A stretch of 55,758 bases of DNA, taken from assembly GCA_031972295.1 (NCBI GenBank), contig DALYEZ010000001.1, positions 1 through 55,758 on the forward strand, read 5' to 3'. The notes under the pieces were generated by a model. That model was given only the letters and a program-made list of their open reading frames with translations. It had not been told where the DNA came from and made no database searches. This document shows positions 155 through 44,756 of this stretch, in pieces; within the stretch, counting starts at the first letter, position 1; each line of letters begins with the position of its first letter. A program made the position numbers and the translations under genes. This DNA comes from Minisyncoccota bacterium (lineage in GTDB: Bacteria; Patescibacteriota; Minisyncoccia; Phycocordibacterales; UBA5272).

Positions 155-1447
155 ATGAAGAAAATAGGTATTGCGTTACTTGGCGTTCTTGTAGCGGGGG
201 CACTCTTTTTTGTGTTTACCTCAAAAACAGGACCAAATGGTCAGCCGATTGAAAATGGTCTTACTGACAAGGACTTGATTACCCTCTATTGGGAGTCAGG
301 AGACGTTTTTTTTACAAACAAGGGGGTACAAGAGGCAAGACTTAATAAAGATTCCTCAAGTGTCATTATTCAGACAGGCAGTCAGGTGCGGACAACTGAA
401 GGATCAGCATACGTGCTTTTCCCCGACAACTCGATGATGTCAATCGATAAAAATACTATCGTAACTATTGAGTACTCAAAAGAGAAAGTTTCTATTCTCC
501 AAACGCTCGGAAACACATACCACCGTGTAAAGACACTCGAATCAGGGCAACAATACGAAGTGCGTACCCCGGGAACGCTCGCTGCTGTGCGTGGTACAAA
601 GTTTGCTGTTTTCTTTGATAACAAAACCAAGAAATCGAATGTAAAAGTAACGGAGAGTAAAGTGAGTGTAAAAAAGCTCGACAGTACCAAACCACTCAAA
701 GATGCTCCTGTGGTGCTTGAAGAAGTTGTTGTTGAAGAAGGCTCACAAGTTGATGTTCCAGATACTTCTATTCAAATCACGCGACCACTTGCGCCAACTC
801 GTATGGGGGAGAAGGACAAACGAGATAGTGGCTGGATGGAGAAGAATGAAATTGTTGACGAAGCAACAGAGAAGCCAGAAAATCGCCGTGAATTTATTGA
901 AAAGATGATTGAGGAGGTGAAGAAACAAAAAGAGGGAATGAATGACAAAGAAAAGATGGATGCGCTCCGTGATCGAGTTAAAAAGTTTAAACAAGAAAAA
1001 GGAATACAAGATGATTCTGTTTCTGAAGAAGACAATTCTAAAGTTCTTGTGGCAAGAAAGACGACTGATGACGCGATTTTAAAACCTCTTCTTGTAGATA
1101 CTAAGCCAGCAGACGACACTCCTTCTTTGAGTGACGACGAAAACCTTCCACCACTTGATCCAAGTATGAGTGATAGTGATGATCCTTTTGTACTCGAGTT
1201 TGATAGACGTTATGAATATTGGTTCCCAATTTACTCAGACAAAGCGACATTATGCTCGCGGGTGAATCCGCTTACCCCAGAAATACTCAAGGCGCGCTTG
1301 ATTGCTTTTGAGACAACCTACAAAGGCACGGTGCCAAATAAAGACGGTATTCTTAATTTTCTTCGAGCATTAAAACTATTCTGTTCTTCAACAGATACAG
1401 ACAATCGAATTCTTGATGAAGGTTACACGGAGAATTACCCTTTCTAA
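155..1447 (+). CDS. Membrane-anchored FecR-domain protein
   Basis: N-terminal TM helix; FecR-like beta domain (TGSQVRT...LFPDNSMMSIDKNT...EVRTPGTLAAVRGTKFAV); charged helical C-terminal half. Confidence 0.8.
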   Translation: MKKIGIALLGVLVAGALFFVFTSKTGPNGQPIENGLTDKDLITLYWESGDVFFTNKGVQEARLNKDSSSVIIQTGSQVRTTEGSAYVLFPDNSMMSIDKNTIVTIEYSKEKVSILQTLGNTYHRVKTLESGQQYEVRTPGTLAAVRGTKFAVFFDNKTKKSNVKVTESKVSVKKLDSTKPLKDAPVVLEEVVVEEGSQVDVPDTSIQITRPLAPTRMGEKDKRDSGWMEKNEIVDEATEKPENRREFIEKMIEEVKKQKEGMNDKEKMDALRDRVKKFKQEKGIQDDSVSEEDNSKVLVARKTTDDAILKPLLVDTKPADDTPSLSDDENLPPLDPSMSDSDDPFVLEFDRRYEYWFPIYSDKATLCSRVNPLTPEILKARLIAFETTYKGTVPNKDGILNFLRALKLFCSSTDTDNRILDEGYTENYPF

Positions 1448-6031: not shown

Positions 6032-6424
6032 ATGAGAATATCAATTAAAGCGACAAACATTGATCTTACTGAGCCACTTCGCTCATATGTAACCGAGCGA
6101 ATTGAATCCGTACGAAAGCTCACGACCATTTCAGATGAATCCCTTCATGCAGCGGTAGAAATAGGAAAAACATCTCACCATCACAAACAGGGAGACATTT
6201 TCCGAGCGGAGGTAAACTTTCATCTTGCACACACCATGTTGCGAGCAGTAGCTGTGAAAGATGATCTCTATGCCGCTATTGATGAAATGAAAGACGAATT
6301 AGCCCGAGAACTTTCTTCATATAAGGATAAAGACAGAACCCTTATGCGTCGCGGAGCCTCGGCGGTAAAAGCGATGATGAAAGGTGTTGGTGATATGTTT
6401 AGAACAAGACGAAGCGATAATTAA
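6032..6424 (+). CDS. raiA: Ribosome hibernation promoting factor (RaiA/HPF, short form)
   Basis: ISIKATNIDLTEPLRSYV..., DDLYAAIDE..DELAREL..YKDK. Confidence 0.92.
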   Translation: MRISIKATNIDLTEPLRSYVTERIESVRKLTTISDESLHAAVEIGKTSHHHKQGDIFRAEVNFHLAHTMLRAVAVKDDLYAAIDEMKDELARELSSYKDKDRTLMRRGASAVKAMMKGVGDMFRTRRSDN

Positions 6425-9848: not shown

Positions 9849-11158
9849 GTTTCTATAATAGCGCGTAACGGAGTATTTATCTCTTCAGGGATAAAGTTGG
9901 GGTGGTAATTGGTAAGGAAGCTATCCGCAAGTTTCGCTTCATTTTCTACAGTAATCCAGTCCTCAACCGAAAGACTTTTCCCAAGCAGTGAATTTTTAAA
10001 GTCATCACTTTGAATCGCGGCGCGACACATTTCAGCTCTTGTTGCTACGCAGTCGAAAGGTTTTACAGGTGAAAGCCCTAGAAGCTCTTTGAGAAGCGGT
10101 GTGAGGCTTTCATTTTGATGCAAATCACTTCCAAATATTTCCATTCTCTTTTCAAGAGGAAGTGAAACTGACAAAAGCATATTTGTACCAAGACATTTTG
10201 CACACACACCACACCATCTTTTTGCACCACTTTCTTCAATGGTGAAGTTTTTATTGCAGCTACTAAAAGCTGGGAATACGTGAGGGCACATTTTTGCAAA
10301 TAAGTTTGTCACTCGAAGTCCACCCAGTGGCCGTAGAATAGAAAAGTATGTAATTTCTTGAGAAATGGTTTGGCGTACAAAATCTTGAACCTTTTTTTCA
10401 AAGTCACTCGTTTTTGACCACTGATGGTTCACGGGTCTGCCGAGCCATTCTGTGTTGGACTCATCAGCACTTGTTTCGTTTGCTACAACGACATACTTAC
10501 TTTGCTCGTGCTCTGCAAGCACAACTCCTGTGAAAGCGTAGATAAGAGAAATAGGAACATGTCCAAGAAAAACATTTTCTTTGAGTGTCAGTAGTTGCGG
10601 GTCTGTTTTGCGGACGACTTCAAGAAGAGGAATATTAAGTGCTTGAGTATTTTCAATGAGCAACGGAATGGATCGAACTTTTGTAGCAAAACCTGTCACA
10701 GGAACATTTATTCTTTTGAGAAGTTCTACTGCAAGCGAAGAATCTTTACCGCCACCGATTCCAACAATAGCTTTTAGTTCGTAGGAAGATGTTGTCTCAT
10801 GTGGCGGTGTACTGACTGTTTCTTCGTAAGTTATTTGTATCTGGTCGACAACACTCCACTCGAGCTTGTTTTGGTACACAAGTTCAGAAAAGCCGTTTCT
10901 AAAAAGCCACTGCCAAAATTCTTTCTCACTATCATCAATTAACCACCCTATGTGTATCTCTGGTGCAAGGTGGAGTTTGAAATAACTAATAGACGTGGCA
11001 ATAGCAAGGGCTCGGAGCGCTTTAGAATCGGAAATCTCAAAAGGAAAGATATGTTCTTCTTGAAATGAAAAAGAAGTAGCTCCGTCGGTATAGGAATAGG
11101 TATAGATTGCTGTGTTTGCAACAACCTTCGGGAGGTGAATAGTGAAGATTTTATCCAT
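9839..11158 (-). CDS. murL: UDP-MurNAc-L-Ala-L-Glu epimerase MurL
   Basis: GIGGGKDS, GHVP, ANETSA, VNHQWSK, YFSILRPL, FSSCNKNF, RWCGVCAKC, KPFDCV match the MurL motif series in order; start set at MDKIF, 7 nt after TGG-CATAAT. Confidence 0.88.
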   Translation of the reverse strand: MDKIFTIHLPKVVANTAIYTYSYTDGATSFSFQEEHIFPFEISDSKALRALAIATSISYFKLHLAPEIHIGWLIDDSEKEFWQWLFRNGFSELVYQNKLEWSVVDQIQITYEETVSTPPHETTSSYELKAIVGIGGGKDSSLAVELLKRINVPVTGFATKVRSIPLLIENTQALNIPLLEVVRKTDPQLLTLKENVFLGHVPISLIYAFTGVVLAEHEQSKYVVVANETSADESNTEWLGRPVNHQWSKTSDFEKKVQDFVRQTISQEITYFSILRPLGGLRVTNLFAKMCPHVFPAFSSCNKNFTIEESGAKRWCGVCAKCLGTNMLLSVSLPLEKRMEIFGSDLHQNESLTPLLKELLGLSPVKPFDCVATRAEMCRAAIQSDDFKNSLLGKSLSVEDWITVENEAKLADSFLTNYHPNFIPEEINTPLRAIIETCE

Positions 11159-11187
11159 TTCTTTCATTATGCCATGTGAACAAGAAA

Positions 11188-11215
11188 TTGACATTCTTAA
11201 TGTGGGGAGTAAATT
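11188..11215 (+). promoter_or_regulatory. Sigma70-type promoter (TTGACA-N16-TAAATT), divergent from murL
   Basis: Perfect -35 at 11188-11193, TAAATT at 11210-11215. Confidence 0.55.
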
Positions 11216-11255
11216 GAAAGGGTGACATTCCGTCACAAGCACTCGGGAGAGTGTC

Positions 11256-11375
11256 ATGGTCAACGAGATCAAGAAAACGGACTGGGTGGAAGGTGCCGTC
11301 ATCGCCGGAATCGCAGGGGTCGCCGGACGATGGGTCAAGCACAAGTGCGGTAGTTTGGTTCAGATGAAATTCTGA
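11256..11375 (+). CDS. Candidate 39-aa small protein MVNEIKKTDWVEGAVIAGIAGVAGRWVKHKCGSLVQMKF (or ORF within a structured RNA)
   Basis: SD-like GGGAGAG upstream of ATG, 27 of 38 post-start codons end in G/C with purine-rich first positions, upstream promoter and downstream terminator; below the ORF-track cutoff. Confidence 0.55.
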   Translation: MVNEIKKTDWVEGAVIAGIAGVAGRWVKHKCGSLVQMKF

Positions 11376-11398
11376 ATCTGAACCAGGGTCATCGGTAG

Positions 11399-11425
11399 GA
11401 GGTGCTGTATAAAGGCACCTCTTTT
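11399..11425 (+). terminator. Intrinsic terminator
   Basis: gaggtgc-tgtataaag-gcacctc followed by TTTT. Confidence 0.75.
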
Positions 11426-11472
11426 CATGTCTGTATTTTTGACAAGTCGGTTATCAGGTGTACCATTTACAT

Positions 11473-11549
11473 TTTAGAGAGTGCGTGGCCAGCAGGGCGA
11501 TCAGTACTCCTAAAACCAAGCACCGAGGAATCTTTCAGTGCTTGTTTTT
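11473..11549 (+). ncRNA. Candidate ~75-nt small RNA
   Basis: TTGACA(11439)-N16-TACCAT(11461) upstream; hairpin gagtgc/gtactc; terminal hairpin caagcac/gtgcttg plus T5; uvrB has its own -10 box downstream. Confidence 0.4.
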
Positions 11550-11580
11550 GTTTAGCCCATTTTCAGGTACACTTTATCTT

Positions 11581-13593
11581 GTGAGTAATTTTAATCTCAA
11601 GGGTTTTACCCCAGCGGGCGACCAGCCAAAGGCGATTAAGGGTCTTGTGGAAGGAATCAAGAAGGGTATGCAAACACAGACCCTTCTTGGTGCTACTGGA
11701 ACAGGAAAGACTTTTACAGTTGCAAGTGTTATACAGCAAATCCAAAAACCAACTCTCGTCATAGCGCACAATAAAACTCTTGCCGCACAGCTTGCCCAAG
11801 AGTTTCGGGAATTTTTTCCTGATGCTGCGGTGCATTACTTTGTATCCTACTACGACTATTATCAGCCGGAGGCATACATGCCGGCGACAGACACCTTCAT
11901 TGAAAAAGACGCGATGATAAACGAAGAAATAGATCGCCTTCGCCATGCTTCCACACAAGCCTTACTTACTCGTAAAGATGTGATTATTGTCGCATCTGTT
12001 TCTTGTATTTATGGTTTGGGAAGTCCAAAAGAATATGAGCGAGAAAATATCCATTTGAAGATTGGTGAAAAATATACCAAGGTGGATATCATGAAGCGAC
12101 TCGTGGCTATTCATTATGAACGCACCAACGCTGATCTTTCTCCGGGACAGTTTCGCGCAGTAGGAAACCGAGTTGATGTTATGCCAGTGTCTGAGACGGT
12201 GATGCTTTCAATTGATTTTTCAGATGGAGTTATTTCAGCACTTGCTGTCATTGACCCAGTGTCCATGAAGCTCCTTGAAAATGTACAAGACTATTTTATT
12301 TTCCCGGCGAAGCACTTTATTTCAGATGAGCCAACAAGAAATAGGGCAGTAAAAACAATTGAAGCAGAACTTAAAATGCAGCTGAAAAAATTTGAAGACG
12401 AAGGGAAGCTTCTAGAATACGAGCGTATCAAGCGCCGTACCACATATGATTTAGCAATGATTCGGGAAATTGGTTTCTGCTCGGGGATTGAAAACTATTC
12501 GCGACATCTTTCTGGTAAAACAGCAGGTGAGCCGCCAGATACCCTTATTGCATACTTTCCACACAAAAAAGATGGTACCCCGGACTTTTTGACAGTGATA
12601 GATGAAAGCCATGTTACTTTGCCACAACTACACGGCATGTATGCAGGCGACCAGTCTCGTAAAAATACTCTTGTTGAATTTGGCTTTCGTCTTCCAAGTG
12701 CAAAAGATAATCGCCCGCTTCGGTATGAAGAGTTTGCTGATCGAGTAGGGCAAACTATTTATGTATCTGCAACACCGGGAAACTTTGAGCGTGAAAATTC
12801 AGAACAAATAGTTCAGCAGATTATTCGTCCAACAGGACTTTTGGATCCACAACTCTCTGTACGTCCGGTGCTTGAGAAAGGAACCTATGGTGGGCAGGTG
12901 CAAGATTTTATTGCTGAGGCAGTAAAAGAAATAAAATCAGGTGGACGAGTGCTTGCCACAACGCTCACGAAAAAGATGGCAGAAGACCTGAGTGTCTTTC
13001 TAAAAGAGCAGAAAATAAAAGCGGAGTATTTGCACAGTGATATAAAGACTATTGAACGTATTCAGATTCTTACACAGTTCCGGAGAGGGGAATTTGATTG
13101 TTTGGTGGGTGTAAACCTCCTTCGTGAAGGTTTGGATTTACCTGAAGTTTCTTTCATTGGTATTTTGGATGCTGACAAAGAAGGCTTTTTGCGTAGTGAA
13201 ACATCGCTTATTCAAACTATTGGGCGTGCTGCGCGCAATGATAAAGGTCGGGTTATTTTGTATGCTGACAACATGACGGGCTCAATGGAGCGGGCTATTG
13301 GAGAAACAACACGACGTCGTGATACGCAGATTGCGTACAACAAGGAACACGGCATCACTCCACAAACGATTCAAAAGAATATTAAAGATATTACGAATCA
13401 GTTGAGTAAGGTTCATGACAAAGCTGTTGCAGGTGAGCTCGCCATCGATAGAAAGCTTTTTGAGAAGAATCCAAATAAGTTGCTGAAGATAAAAGAAAAA
13501 CAAATGAAAGAAGCAGTGAAGGTGCTTGATTTTGAAACCGCAGCAATTTTGCGTGACGAGATAAAGATTTTGAAAGAGCGGATGACGCAATAG
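11581..13593 (+). CDS. uvrB: Excinuclease ABC subunit B
   Basis: PAGDQPKAI, Walker A GATGTGKT, YYDYYQPEAY beta-hairpin, DESH, GRAARN, C-terminal UVR domain; GTG start. Confidence 0.98.
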   Translation: MSNFNLKGFTPAGDQPKAIKGLVEGIKKGMQTQTLLGATGTGKTFTVASVIQQIQKPTLVIAHNKTLAAQLAQEFREFFPDAAVHYFVSYYDYYQPEAYMPATDTFIEKDAMINEEIDRLRHASTQALLTRKDVIIVASVSCIYGLGSPKEYERENIHLKIGEKYTKVDIMKRLVAIHYERTNADLSPGQFRAVGNRVDVMPVSETVMLSIDFSDGVISALAVIDPVSMKLLENVQDYFIFPAKHFISDEPTRNRAVKTIEAELKMQLKKFEDEGKLLEYERIKRRTTYDLAMIREIGFCSGIENYSRHLSGKTAGEPPDTLIAYFPHKKDGTPDFLTVIDESHVTLPQLHGMYAGDQSRKNTLVEFGFRLPSAKDNRPLRYEEFADRVGQTIYVSATPGNFERENSEQIVQQIIRPTGLLDPQLSVRPVLEKGTYGGQVQDFIAEAVKEIKSGGRVLATTLTKKMAEDLSVFLKEQKIKAEYLHSDIKTIERIQILTQFRRGEFDCLVGVNLLREGLDLPEVSFIGILDADKEGFLRSETSLIQTIGRAARNDKGRVILYADNMTGSMERAIGETTRRRDTQIAYNKEHGITPQTIQKNIKDITNQLSKVHDKAVAGELAIDRKLFEKNPNKLLKIKEKQMKEAVKVLDFETAAILRDEIKILKERMTQ

Positions 13594-30928: not shown

Positions 30929-30984
30929 TTTGACAAATTTATAGAAGTATCTTAATATAATAAGTAATTGTCCTATTAAAGTTT

Positions 30985-32016
30985 ATGTCTACACTAACAT
31001 TTAAGCCAAAACAGGTTACCAAAAAGCTTCTCTCACCGCTCTCAGGAAGGGCTAAAGATGTTGTTACTAGTCGTTTCGGTATTACAGATGGCGCTGAACG
31101 AAAGACCCTTGAGGCGATTGGAAAACAGTACGGCATTACTCGTGAACGAGTTCGACAAATCGAACAATTCGCCCTCTCTACAATTAAAAAGTCCGATACA
31201 TTTGGAGAATTTACTCACGTTTTTGCTGAGCTTAAACAAGCGATTCATAAACTTGGCGGCATTGTTGCAGAGCATGACTTTTTAGGTAAAGTTTCTAAAG
31301 ATGCTGAAACACAGAATCATGTGCACTTTTATCTCACACTTGGAGATGATTTTAAAAAACATAAAGAGGACGACAGTTTTCATCACCGATGGACTATTAA
31401 TCAAAAGGTAACAGACATTGTTCACAATGCTCTCACTGAGCTCTACGCAGGTTTGGATAATGAAGAGTTGGTAAGTGAAAATCATATTATCGACACTTTT
31501 ACTGCAAAACTAAGTGAACTTGCTCCAGAATATCGCAGTGAAGAAATAATTAAGCGTTACCTTACAATCTCAAAATCAATTGGCAAAAATGCTCTTGGTG
31601 AGTGGGGAAAGACATCATCACCACATATTCACACACGTGGAATTAAAGATTATGCATACCTTGTAATGCGAAAGTTTGGCTCACCAATGCACTTCAAGGA
31701 CGTAGCGAAAGATATTTCAAAATACTTTGGCAAAAAGGCACACGTTGCAACGACGCACAACGAACTCATTAAGGATGAACGATTTGTACTTGTTGGACGA
31801 GGAGTATACGGACTTCGAGAATGGGGACATGTAGGTGGTGTAGTGCGTGACGTTATTGTGGAGGTGCTTAAGGAGTCAAAAAAACCAATGAGCAAAGAAG
31901 CTATCATTGATCAGGTACTTAAAAAACGTGTCGTGAAAGCAAATACTATTGCTGTAAATCTTCAAAACACTGATTTCTTCAAGAAAACAAAAGAAGGACT
32001 CTACGACTTAGCATAA
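30985..32016 (+). CDS. Sigma70 region-4 HTH plus tandem winged-helix (HARE-HTH/RNAP delta-like) protein
   Basis: TLEAIGKQYGITRERVRQIE; L...GSPMHFKDV...HNELIKDERFVLVGRGVYGLREWG. Confidence 0.78.
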   Translation: MSTLTFKPKQVTKKLLSPLSGRAKDVVTSRFGITDGAERKTLEAIGKQYGITRERVRQIEQFALSTIKKSDTFGEFTHVFAELKQAIHKLGGIVAEHDFLGKVSKDAETQNHVHFYLTLGDDFKKHKEDDSFHHRWTINQKVTDIVHNALTELYAGLDNEELVSENHIIDTFTAKLSELAPEYRSEEIIKRYLTISKSIGKNALGEWGKTSSPHIHTRGIKDYAYLVMRKFGSPMHFKDVAKDISKYFGKKAHVATTHNELIKDERFVLVGRGVYGLREWGHVGGVVRDVIVEVLKESKKPMSKEAIIDQVLKKRVVKANTIAVNLQNTDFFKKTKEGLYDLA

Positions 32017-41109: not shown

Positions 41110-41156
41110 ATTACGTGGTTGTGACTTTGTAATTTTACTATATACTGTCTCCATAT

Positions 41157-41366
41157 ATGCCAGATGCTGAACCGGTCCAAGGACAAGTAATAGAAGCGCT
41201 CCCGAGCACGCTTTTCAAAGTGAAATTAAAAGATACCGACACTGAGGTTCTTTCGTATTTAGGGGGTAAAATGCGTATCCATAAAATACGAATTCTAGTA
41301 GGGGATAAGGTGGCTGTACTACTTGATCCATATGGTGGTAAAGCGAGAATAGTGAAGCGTCTCTAG
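41157..41366 (+). CDS. infA: Translation initiation factor IF-1
   Basis: GQVIEALPS..FKV, GKMRIHKIRILVGDKV. Confidence 0.95.
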   Translation: MPDAEPVQGQVIEALPSTLFKVKLKDTDTEVLSYLGGKMRIHKIRILVGDKVAVLLDPYGGKARIVKRL

Positions 41367-41422
41367 AGTCCTTGCGTTATACATAAAAATATCGTATTAT
41401 ACATAACCATATTGCCGTTATC

Positions 41423-41545
41423 ATGAAAATCAAATCAACAATCAAGGCAAAAGACTTGCGTAATGGAGAATTTCTTGTTCGCCGAAACGGGAAACTTTTC
41501 CGTATTAACAAGAAAGACCCAGCTCGCAAGGCTCGACAAGGGTAA
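41423..41545 (+). CDS. rpmJ: 50S ribosomal protein bL36 (Cys-free form)
   Basis: [40 protein letters not shown] between infA and rpsM; missed by the ORF track. Confidence 0.92.
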
Positions 41546-41567
41546 CAATTTATAATTATTAAAGCAC

Positions 41568-41948
41568 ATGCGAATTTCAGGTATTACAATCCCAGAGAAA
41601 AAACGTCTCGAAATCAGCCTTACCGCAGTTTTTGGTATTGGTCGACCACGAGCAAAAACAATTCTTCAGAAATTGAAGATTGATGAAAGTAAGTCAGCTA
41701 AAGATCTTACAGAAGAACAAGAAAATGCTATTCGAAAAGAGATCGAGGCTTTTAAAATTGAAGGAGATCTCAAGCGTGATGTTGCTCAAAACATTAAGCG
41801 TCTTAAGGATATCAAGGCCTACCGAGGTGTACGACATATGCGTAAAATGCCTGTACGAGGCCAGCGCACAAAGACAAACTCTCGAACTGTTCGTGGAAAT
41901 GTTCGAAAGACTATGGGAAGCGGTCGACGAAAGGCTGAAAAGACATAA
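41568..41948 (+). CDS. rpsM: 30S ribosomal protein uS13
   Basis: RISG..IP..K, FGIGR, YRGVRH...PVRGQRTKTNSRT. Confidence 0.98.
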   Translation: MRISGITIPEKKRLEISLTAVFGIGRPRAKTILQKLKIDESKSAKDLTEEQENAIRKEIEAFKIEGDLKRDVAQNIKRLKDIKAYRGVRHMRKMPVRGQRTKTNSRTVRGNVRKTMGSGRRKAEKT

Positions 41949-41977
41949 TCCTTTTACATATCTAACTATTTAATACT

Positions 41978-44044: not shown

Positions 44045-44048
44045 TCGT

Positions 44049-44405
44049 ATGAATCATCACAAAACAGGAAGAAAATTTGGTCGGGAAAAGAATGCACGTG
44101 TAGCACTCGTACGAGGCTTACTCCTTTCTCTTATCGAACATGAAAGTATTGTTACAACTGAAGCAAAAGCGAAAGAAATCCGCCCACGCATTGAAAAGCT
44201 TGTAACACGAGCAAAAGAAGATACTCTTGCAAACAAACGTATTGTTCTTTCTCGACTTTACAACAGCACAAAGGCGACTCGAAAACTTTTTGCCGATATC
44301 GGTAAACGGTTTGACGGTGTACAGGGTGGCTATACTCGTATTATTAAACTTGGTCGCCGCACAGGAGATGCAAGTAAAATGGCAGTAATTGAATTCACAA
44401 AGTAA
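44049..44405 (+). CDS. rplQ: 50S ribosomal protein bL17
   Basis: TTEAKAKEIR..EKLVT, GGYTRIIKL..R.GDA. Confidence 0.97.
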   Translation: MNHHKTGRKFGREKNARVALVRGLLLSLIEHESIVTTEAKAKEIRPRIEKLVTRAKEDTLANKRIVLSRLYNSTKATRKLFADIGKRFDGVQGGYTRIIKLGRRTGDASKMAVIEFTK

Positions 44406-44406
44406 T

Positions 44407-44751
44407 ATGAAACACACAATCGACGCCACAAATCAGTCTCTCGGACGAATTGCTACACAGGTAGCTGCGCTTTTGAATGGAAAAAATACTGTTACTTTTG
44501 TTAAAAATAAAGTTGCAGAAGTAGAAGTTGCAGTTATTAATGCTTCAAAACTTAAAGTAACGGGAAGTAAAATGAAAGAATCTGTGCACAAGCGCTACTC
44601 TGGATACCCAGGAGGCCTTACACAAGAATCTCTTACACATGTTGTTGCAAAAAAAGGTCACGCTGAGCTTATCAAACATGCGGTAGAAGGAATGCTTCCT
44701 AAAAACAAGCTCCAGAAAATTCGCATGAAGCTTCTTACTATTTCTGAATAA
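44407..44751 (+). CDS. rplM: 50S ribosomal protein uL13 (short form)
   Basis: IDA..Q.LGRIA, VINASK, HKRYSGYPGGL, AVEGMLPKN. Confidence 0.95.
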   Translation: MKHTIDATNQSLGRIATQVAALLNGKNTVTFVKNKVAEVEVAVINASKLKVTGSKMKESVHKRYSGYPGGLTQESLTHVVAKKGHAELIKHAVEGMLPKNKLQKIRMKLLTISE

Positions 44752-44756
44752 CTTTT

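Follow-up and report, generated by a model that had tools for sequence, protein, structure and literature searches.

What occupies the 413-nt spacer that divides the divergent murL and uvrB genes in the genome of a member of Candidatus Paceibacteria (Patescibacteria/Candidate Phyla Radiation, CPR)? The stretch analysed here (contig DALYEZ010000001.1, positions 1 to 55,758, referred to throughout as the window) is tightly packed, and the spacer, among its longest non-coding gaps, holds a GC-rich island which a preliminary description, made from the sequence by eye, had read as an unannotated transcription unit for a 39-amino acid (aa) membrane peptide of the type I toxin kind, a 6S-like RNA or an RNA with both functions. 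Direct inspection of the sequence recovered every element listed in that description, position by position (Table 1), and the island is most likely an unannotated, self-contained transcription unit. The explanation that we favour, with moderate confidence, is a monocistronic, clade-specific gene for a small glycine-rich protein, carried on a structured and independently terminated mRNA, the translation of which would be throttled by a conserved hairpin; the peptide family is most likely narrow, new and restricted to a single Paceibacteria clade. In the CPR/Patescibacteria, hardly any work has been done on small proteins and small RNAs, which annotation misses. The locus would represent a rare leadered, ribosome-binding-site-dependent gene in an apparently overwhelmingly leaderless genome, and combines what looks like hairpin-gated translation with an extreme and conserved use of host-rare G/C-ending codons and with cassette-like gain, loss and swapping. 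If its expression is confirmed, it would offer a handle on the coexistence of translation initiation modes in CPR as well as a clade-specific accessory peptide; no general principle is changed by it.

The comparative evidence comes from the murL-uvrB spacers of thirteen other Paceibacteria assemblies, collected with MurL as an anchor; the percentages given with their handles denote MurL identity to the window. A window-like (W) form, sharing with the window the promoter, both 5' hairpins, the ribosome-binding site and the ATG, was found in L009 (99%), L001 (89%), L007 (85%) and L011/L012 (69%), with the promoter P1 itself retained in L001, L007, L009 and L011. The open reading frame (ORF) is 30 aa long in L001 (MIEDIKKTHSDNIAVIAGVCGVDRGEVTGR), 41 aa in L007 (MLEDIQKAGGINSAVIAGSNHPTDGSAVIAGVAGQRETTGH) and 7 aa in L011. 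The A, B and C forms (L013, L016/17, L010, L014, L179-181 and L018) have leaders that differ from W and the same layout of promoter, hairpin, strong GGAG/AGGAGG box, start codon, GC-rich body and terminator, with an ORF of 0 to 52 codons.

The best evidence that the ORF is coding is provided by L179 (MKKNTAEGFTEKGAVDAIVAGCNNGGTTYGSDFRGGCNNGADEVSKTGWYKV) and L010 (MLNEIEGFTDKGGFGSDFRGGCKNGADEIGDGTANCSKTGWYKV), the peptides of which belong to a 5'-leader type different from W and have in common the C-terminal sequence GSDFRGGC(K/N)NGADE...SKTGWYKV. Over 37 codons, nonsynonymous divergence (dN) is 0.18 and synonymous divergence (dS) 0.95, a ratio of 0.19; differences are distributed 5/6/15 over the three codon positions, no indel breaks the frame, and none of the other frames scores as well. 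The frame is also kept among the window, L001 and L007, with indels of 3 and 33 nt; the codons for AVIAG vary in these three at third positions only (GTC/GTC/GTG, ATC/ATC/ATT, GGA/GGT/GGC), dN/dS in the ORF frame over 24 alignable codons is 0.54, 0.17 and 0.36 for the three pairs, and 8/1/15 differences separate the window from L007 at the three codon positions. In this W subgroup, dN/dS is ~0.7-10 when computed in the two other sense frames or in one of the antisense frames. The samples behind these tests are small (24 and 37 codons). An ATG (GTG in L018) preceded at 5-9 nt by GGAG, GAGG or AGGAGG marks the start of the frame in all leader types. The 39-aa frame of the preliminary description is thus supported: its start codon, ribosome-binding site and N-terminal residues are conserved, indels keep the frame and substitutions are periodic by codon, and we consider it very probably translated. 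When the relatives are compared for coding and for structure, as had been proposed there, both leave a trace, with dN/dS of ~0.2-0.5 and in-frame indels on the one side and 5' hairpins that keep their pairing on the other. An N-terminal extension of MurL running antisense through the island was considered and rejected: every relative, with or without the island, has a MurL that begins with the conserved M(E/D)K(I/V)F.

Two motifs, M-x-(N/E)-(E/D)-I and (E/K)GAV(D/I)(A/G)I, link all leader types (examples of the latter are VEGAVIAGIAG in the window, EKGAVDAIVAG in L179 and GKGAVDGIRNG in L013), and codons 1-24 of the window ORF are homologous to the family. By these motifs, the reading frame belongs to one family of glycine-rich small proteins of 26-52 residues, in which a conserved N-terminal half, M-x-(N/E)-(E/D)-I-x-x-x-x-x-x-(E/K)-G-A-V-(I/D)-A-G, is joined to a C-terminus that, in the alignments, varies freely. 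To judge from its members, duplication, truncation and replacement of the C-terminus have shaped the family. The L007 peptide and a 42-residue peptide of L013 were also called independently by a gene caller; they are the only two that the callers behind the public databases have recorded.

The two 5' hairpins are the second conserved component of the unit. Over five W-type leaders, pairing is kept in 96.7% of cells, three pairs have changed in both partners, and the value falls to 23-58% when the partner columns are slid, in a sample that is small and with a shuffle control (6/500) that is indicative only. Hairpin 1 (11222-11236) keeps all five pairs in the 5 sequences, with one double change from A-U to G-C and one change from C-G to U-G. 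The hairpin that holds the ribosome-binding site, described earlier as locking the Shine-Dalgarno sequence, is 94% paired over 5 sequences and is indeed conserved with compensatory changes, the double changes being C-G to U-A and G-C to A-U. The putative ribosome-binding site within it is GGGAGAG (11245-11251), with GGAG located 6 nt 5' of the ATG, and such a conserved strong Shine-Dalgarno box, enclosed in a hairpin, is remarkable in a genome where these sites are so scarce (a Shine-Dalgarno-like motif precedes only 5 of the 50 long ORFs of the window). Pairing is likewise retained, through changes in both arms, in the terminators of L001, L007, L011 and the B, C and L002 forms, and hairpins of other sequence are present at or just past the stop codons of relatives (CCACTGAT/ATCAGTGG in L007, GGCAAC/GTTGCC in L001). 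Apart from the 5' hairpins and the terminators, no part of the RNA can be aligned, not even that of the window with that of L001.

Jointly, the features of the unit go beyond what chance would produce. Nowhere in the 55.7-kb window is the GC content higher than in the island (0.60 per 120 nt, compared to a mean of 0.397 and a standard deviation of 0.048), and two of the only three full TTGACA-N16-18-TAnnnT promoters in these 55.7 kb, at 11188 and 11439, lie inside the spacer; the third match (30930-30958) sits in a short gap 5' of an ORF starting at 30985. The G+C content at third codon positions (GC3) of the small ORF is 0.72, in agreement with the count of 27/38 in the preliminary description, versus a mean of 0.30 in host genes, and none of the 15,066 39-codon windows in the 50 long ORFs has a GC3 above 0.615. 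Given that GC1 and GC2 are host-like, the GC island is largely a third-codon-position effect. Across the family, ~70% of synonymous sites are G/C despite dS of ~1 in an AT-rich genome, for which RNA-level selection, biased gene conversion and foreign origin are the candidate causes.

Put together, these elements suggest how the unit might be expressed. A near-consensus sigma-70-type promoter (11188-11215) would fire back-to-back with the murL promoter, and the transcript, with a predicted start at ~11222, would begin with a terminal hairpin shielding its 5' end; the second conserved hairpin would hold the ribosome-binding site and so throttle initiation. Ribosomes that gain entry would translate 39 codons, mostly host-rare and ending in G or C, and would stop within the loop of a 10-bp hairpin; the first terminator (T1), with the second (T2) as a backup, would end the RNA and guard the leaderless uvrB promoter from read-through. 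From the sequence we infer the sites of transcription start and stop, translation, the stabilising role of the 5' hairpin, slow decoding of the rare codons and any function of the peptide. T1 was not flagged by a simple terminator scan, and its T run is short, so that its efficiency is uncertain; T2 sits where relatives carry a conserved terminator (alignment with L002, L018 and L014).

The product is probably a short helical peptide, soluble or at most membrane-peripheral. AlphaFold models the window peptide as a single helix, with moderate confidence only (predicted local distance difference test, pLDDT, of 69). Averaged over 19 residues, Kyte-Doolittle hydropathy peaks at 0.95 in the window peptide and at -0.55 to 0.71 in the homologues, against a customary threshold of ~1.6; net charge ranges from +3 to -2 across the family, most members being acidic or neutral, the Gly/Ala 'core' shrinks or turns polar in homologues, and the basic tail is not conserved. 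Our best guess is a low-abundance accessory peptide that might engage a partner protein through helix-helix (small-xxx-small) contacts; we do not think that it is a pore-forming toxin. Among other candidates, a double-glycine bacteriocin leader was dropped because GG occurs at residues 9-13 in only two members, and a remnant of a Rossmann GxGxxG motif, an RTX repeat and a CsbD-like protein were set aside, as their motifs do not match the peptides and no hidden Markov model supports them.

Several observations weigh against a small protein gene. The two remaining antisense frames score like the ORF frame (~0.3-0.8), one of them, the frame that would extend MurL, sharing its third positions, and within the window's own subgroup dN/dS is only moderately below 1, on 24 codons. 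The last 15 codons of the ORF have no homologue and are unique to the window genome, and the first ORF has only 6-9 codons in L011/L012, L016/L017, unit A of L013 and L018. L014 has no ORF. Promoter, hairpin and terminator are nonetheless retained in all of these, which points to a role at the RNA level or in cis, and three relatives lack the unit altogether, so that it must be dispensable. A GC3 of 0.72 and host-rare codons are atypical of a native gene. The family is also barely visible in databases: a three-peptide profile run against 5.8 billion predicted proteins retrieved only the L007 peptide itself, and HMMER against 1.84 billion representatives retrieved only this peptide and one low-complexity repeat protein. 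A 40-aa version of the window peptide used as a query gave no candidates, a look-up of the exact window-peptide sequence found no record, Pfam, NCBIfam, PHROGs, PADLOC and PDB returned nothing or chance matches to antibody complementarity-determining regions, and tblastn found no match in phage DNA and plasmid records. Finally, if the 16S rRNA of the window organism, the gene for which lies outside the window, also lacks the anti-Shine-Dalgarno sequence, the purine-rich box could not be a classical ribosome-binding site. The 16S rRNA of L075, a metagenome-assembled genome (MAG) of related Nomurabacteria, ends in GGAUCAAUUCAAU / GGATCAATTCAAT, without the CCTCC anti-Shine-Dalgarno sequence (L075:1-602, 3' end at about 590-602).

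The distribution of the unit among the relatives is uneven. In the compact form of the locus (L006, 68%; L008, 79%; L015, 72%) the spacer measures 45 nt and holds no unit, and two back-to-back -10 boxes each lie 6-7 nt from their start codon; L002 (65%) has merely a short promoter-to-terminator unit. Tandem units occur in the window and in L013. In L010 and L179 the first ORF is a four-codon upstream mini-ORF abutting the next ribosome-binding site, that of L179, ATGGTCAACGACTAA, being a truncated copy of the window's ATGGTCAACGAG... The leader of L009 is identical to that of the window, and its ORF differs from the first codon on (MIKDNATQD...) despite 99% MurL identity, with the contig ending 27 nt past the divergence point (L009:1-74 versus window 11186-11282); such a break suggests a strain-level allele replacement that may cause assemblies to break here. 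In a neighbour-joining MurL tree (without bootstrap support), compact loci fall on three branches and the W form in two separate clades, that is, the presence, absence and type of the unit disagree with the tree. The discord with the MurL tree, the abrupt divergence between the window and L009, the tandem units and the truncated copies therefore point to a dispensable, recombining cassette site at which units appear to have been duplicated, truncated, swapped or deleted. Wider sampling changed this picture little: an exact DNA pattern of the 5' ORF region matched, among genome contigs, only the L001 contig; a metagenome scan with the MurL alignment gave one locus, of the compact type; the matches listed from a genome scan with a 17-sequence MurL alignment were mostly distant MurL loci and added nothing to the clade; and no further copy of the peptide was found in the window or in any collected locus.

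Could the RNA itself, rather than the peptide, be what selection maintains? The plus-strand RNA has a minimum free energy (MFE) of -77.9 kcal/mol, where dinucleotide shuffles reach -60.6 +/- 4.0 (z -4.3); the opposite strand also folds well (z -3.3), and the folds of all units beat their shuffles (z -1.7 to -3.8). A 6S-like RNA, imitating an open promoter and sequestering RNA polymerase, would share the length of ~200 nt (in this one genome only), the high GC content, the stable fold and an own promoter and terminator, and the 5' and 3' parts of the unit can be drawn as joined by a few short helices; nevertheless, we assign it next to no probability, and 6S RNA is rejected at the level of sequence. 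The covariance-model search suggested in the preliminary description returned at the Rfam gathering threshold only two tRNAs from the whole window and, for the 551 nt around the unit (11100-11650), noise only at E<=10, with no 6S RNA and no riboswitch; RF00013 had no match at E<=0.1 in nine homologous loci, and permissive Rfam scans of 23 related loci gave no relevant match. MFE and centroid folds are multibranched, without the rod and central bubble of 6S RNA, and the 'rod' pairings proposed earlier proved to be short, wobble-containing helices that lie outside the minimum-energy fold and are not conserved in L001 or L007, the 3' halves of the window, L001 and L007 not being alignable. Unlike 6S RNA, the unit varies in length (~100 to 290 nt across relatives), is patchily distributed, being missing from close relatives, and has conserved signals for translation initiation (ribosome-binding site and start codon). 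A regulatory or dual-function small RNA of another kind, in which a stable, GC-rich, hairpin-capped RNA acts in trans through base-pairing or protein binding and the ORF is secondary, its translation modulating the fold or half-life of the RNA or the ORF adding a lineage-specific function, is unlikely but still credible: the scaffold of promoter, 5' hairpin, ribosome-binding site with start codon, GC-rich body and terminator persists where the ORF has 4-9 codons or is absent, all units fold better than shuffles, the synonymous sites stay G/C-rich despite dS of ~1, as selection on RNA structure would cause, and the adjoining second tandem unit has no ORF. It is opposed by the clear purifying selection on the L010/L179 peptide, by the restriction of alignable RNA to two 5' hairpins and the terminators, with no conserved seed or fold, by the absence of any Rfam family match and by the lack of the unit in three relatives. 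SgrS/SgrT, RNAIII/delta-haemolysin and SR1/SR1P are known small-protein mRNAs or dual-function small RNAs, and the window unit is similarly short, with its own transcription and termination, a structured RNA, an ORF of <50 codons and a start controlled by local structure; it differs from them in an RNA body that is not conserved, with no known seed or target, in its restriction to one small Paceibacteria clade and in its host-rare G/C-ending codons. A broader version, in which the site is a cassette for fast-diversifying gated peptides with or without a functional RNA, RNA selection holds the synonymous G/C, and the whole forms an undescribed dual-function module with which these reduced, largely leaderless episymbionts would interact with hosts, competitors or phages, strikes us as rather unlikely.

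The remaining alternatives concern what the peptide or the DNA might be for. A type I toxin-antitoxin-like module would comprise a silenced, stable toxin mRNA checked by an antisense or neighbouring small RNA, such as the second tandem unit. Toxin mRNAs of this kind (hok/sok, tisB/istR, fst and ibs/sib) are, like the window unit, stably folded, with a sequestered ribosome-binding site, a tiny ORF, in some cases mini-ORF coupling, tandem or decayed copies and a patchy distribution. The 39-aa ORF on a structured mRNA with a 5' hairpin, the four-codon mini-ORFs of L010 and L179 that abut the next ribosome-binding site as in mok/hok coupling, and the Gly/Ala-rich stretch and basic tail of the window peptide all fit. 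However, no member reaches transmembrane hydropathy (maximum 0.95 in the window) and the family peptides are glycine-rich and mostly hydrophilic or acidic; the promoter scan shows, near the unit, only the murL promoter on the opposite strand, with no antisense promoter or complementary small RNA found; unit 2 resembles part of unit 1 and, by eye, has no extended complementarity to it; and Pfam, NCBIfam, PADLOC and PHROGs contain no matching family. The membrane peptide of the preliminary description is therefore not upheld, hydropathy being below the threshold in all members and neither core nor basic tail being conserved, and we regard a type I module as very improbable. A leader-peptide attenuator of uvrB, in which translation of the ORF decides whether a terminator forms and hence whether transcription reads through into uvrB, is decidedly improbable as well. 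The unit is always on the uvrB strand, directly upstream, and ends in a terminator 25-45 nt 5' of the uvrB start; its stop codon lies within a hairpin, the uvrB promoter of the window subgroup has no good -35, and very short ORFs would be enough. Known attenuators (the trp, his and erm/cat-type leaders) have in common with it a short ORF followed by hairpins and an intrinsic terminator 5' of a co-oriented gene. By contrast, all forms of the locus, even the 45-nt spacers that lack a unit, place a -10 box at leaderless distance from uvrB, and in the window two terminators and an intervening second promoter separate uvrB from the ORF. The ORFs, 4 to 52 codons long, include longer ones under protein-level selection, and contain no regulatory codon runs; no antiterminator or other alternative pairing is conserved, those of the preliminary description not being retained in L001 or L007; moreover, a read-through transcript would place the uvrB start inside a leader lacking a ribosome-binding site. 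Since the uvrB -10 box keeps a fixed distance of 6-8 nt from the start codon here and in most of ~80 other loci, the unit appears dispensable for uvrB expression, uvrB having, by its sequence, its own promoter in every form of the locus; the unit, in turn, would be an insulated transcript independent of a leaderless uvrB. This own promoter and the insulating terminators together make an attenuator role unlikely. Decaying foreign, GC-richer DNA, left at a recombination or integration hotspot 5' of uvrB and without present function, would explain the foreign-looking GC3 and codon usage, the disagreement with the MurL tree, the commonness of truncated copies and the GC-rich HTH_17 (excisionase-like) genes and units that other lineages hold at the same position. 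We consider it improbable, given the purifying selection on the peptide, the compensatory changes that maintain the hairpins, the promoter and terminator that are intact in all copies, a GC3 kept over dS of ~1 in an AT-rich genome, contrary to neutral decay, and the lack of similarity to phage or plasmid records. The gated small protein gene thus remains our preferred reading.

Table 1. Coordinates of the features of the murL-uvrB spacer in the window and of GC-rich units 5' of uvrB in other lineages (handles precede the latter).
Feature	Position	Strand	Details
murL promoter	11166..11194	-	-35 ATGTCA 11194-11189; TG-extended -10 CATAAT 11171-11166; 7 nt; ATG 11158
Promoter P1	11188..11215	+	TTGACA 11188-11193; 16 nt; TAAATT 11210-11215
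5'-terminal hairpin	11222..11236	+	GTGAC 11222-11226 pairs with GTCAC 11232-11236; loop attcc; at or beside the predicted first transcribed base
Hairpin holding the ribosome-binding site	11240..11253	+	CACTC 11240-11244; loop GGGA; GAGTG 11249-11253; G11239-U11254 can extend it
Small ORF, 39 aa	11256..11375	+	Peptide MVNEIKKTDWVEGAVIAGIAGVAGRWVKHKCGSLVQMKF
Perfect 10-bp hairpin over the ORF end	11356..11385	+	11356-11365 pairs with 11376-11385; stop TGA 11373-11375 in the loop
Terminator T1	11399..11425	+	Hairpin 11399-11421, GAGGTGC...GCACCTC, then TTTT; 10-bp stem in MFE and centroid folds
Promoter P2	11439..11466	+	TTGACA; 16 nt; TACCAT
Second tandem unit	11472..11553	+	~80-nt RNA; hairpin 11472-11515; terminator T2; fold z -3.3
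Terminator T2	11517..11544	+	CAAGCAC 11517-11523 pairs with GTGCTTG 11538-11544, then TTTTTGTTT
uvrB -10 box and start	11568..11583	+	TACACT 11568-11573; 7 nt; GTG 11581 start; leaderless
GC-rich units 5' of uvrB	L034 ~600-860; L038 ~680-870; L083 ~640-860; L094 ~640-860; L045 ~560-790; L074 ~540-790		

In the second tandem unit (11439-11553) no ORF is convincing; the terminator region of this unit is similar to that of L002 (GCACCGAGG...) but forms other pairs. Other Paceibacteria lineages, with different upstream genes, also have GC-rich promoter-to-terminator units directly 5' of a leaderless uvrB (Table 1), of which those of L045 and L074 encode GC-rich HTH_17/MerR-like (excisionase-type) small proteins; the GC-rich units of these lineages gave no Rfam match. 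A comparable GC island occurs within 450 nt 5' of uvrB in 6 of 71 loci, versus 3 with an island further upstream and 4 with one inside uvrB, and the idea of a GC-rich unit as a general companion of uvrB is suggestive at most.

To the left of the unit, on the minus strand, lies murL, encoding UDP-MurNAc-L-Ala-L-Glu epimerase (Pfam MurL_N and MurL_epimerase_C on homologues), the closest relatives of which are found in Paceibacteria MAGs; uvrB lies to the right. The layout between the murL -10 box and start codon is supported by the promoter scan and by the compact relatives, which have TATAAT, 7 nt and ATG, and murL is probably leaderless. At 11188-11194 the -35 hexamer of the small-ORF promoter on the plus strand shares positions with that of the murL promoter on the minus strand, the two promoters lying back-to-back; they may therefore compete for RNA polymerase, with footprints that would be mutually exclusive. 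In the compact relatives, the murL and uvrB promoters are squeezed likewise into 45 nt, with the uvrB -10 box retained. The arrangement GGTACACTTT...GTG before uvrB is conserved in relatives: in all expanded forms of the locus a terminator is followed by a conserved TTCCCA-17 nt-TACACT-7 nt-GTG, and in most of ~80 Paceibacteria loci a -10-like box is present 6-8 nt 5' of the uvrB start. Within the window, a TAnnnT box (often TGGTATAAT-like) ends 6-9 nt 5' of the start codon in 18 of the 50 long ORFs, and the genome looks largely leaderless; the starts examined for such boxes include those at 6032, 32046 and 50211. The otherwise densely packed window also has two unusually long gaps without ORFs of at least 130 aa, at 41110-41977 (868 nt) and 44045-44756 (712 nt), both of ordinary GC content (maximum 0.47-0.53 per 80 nt).

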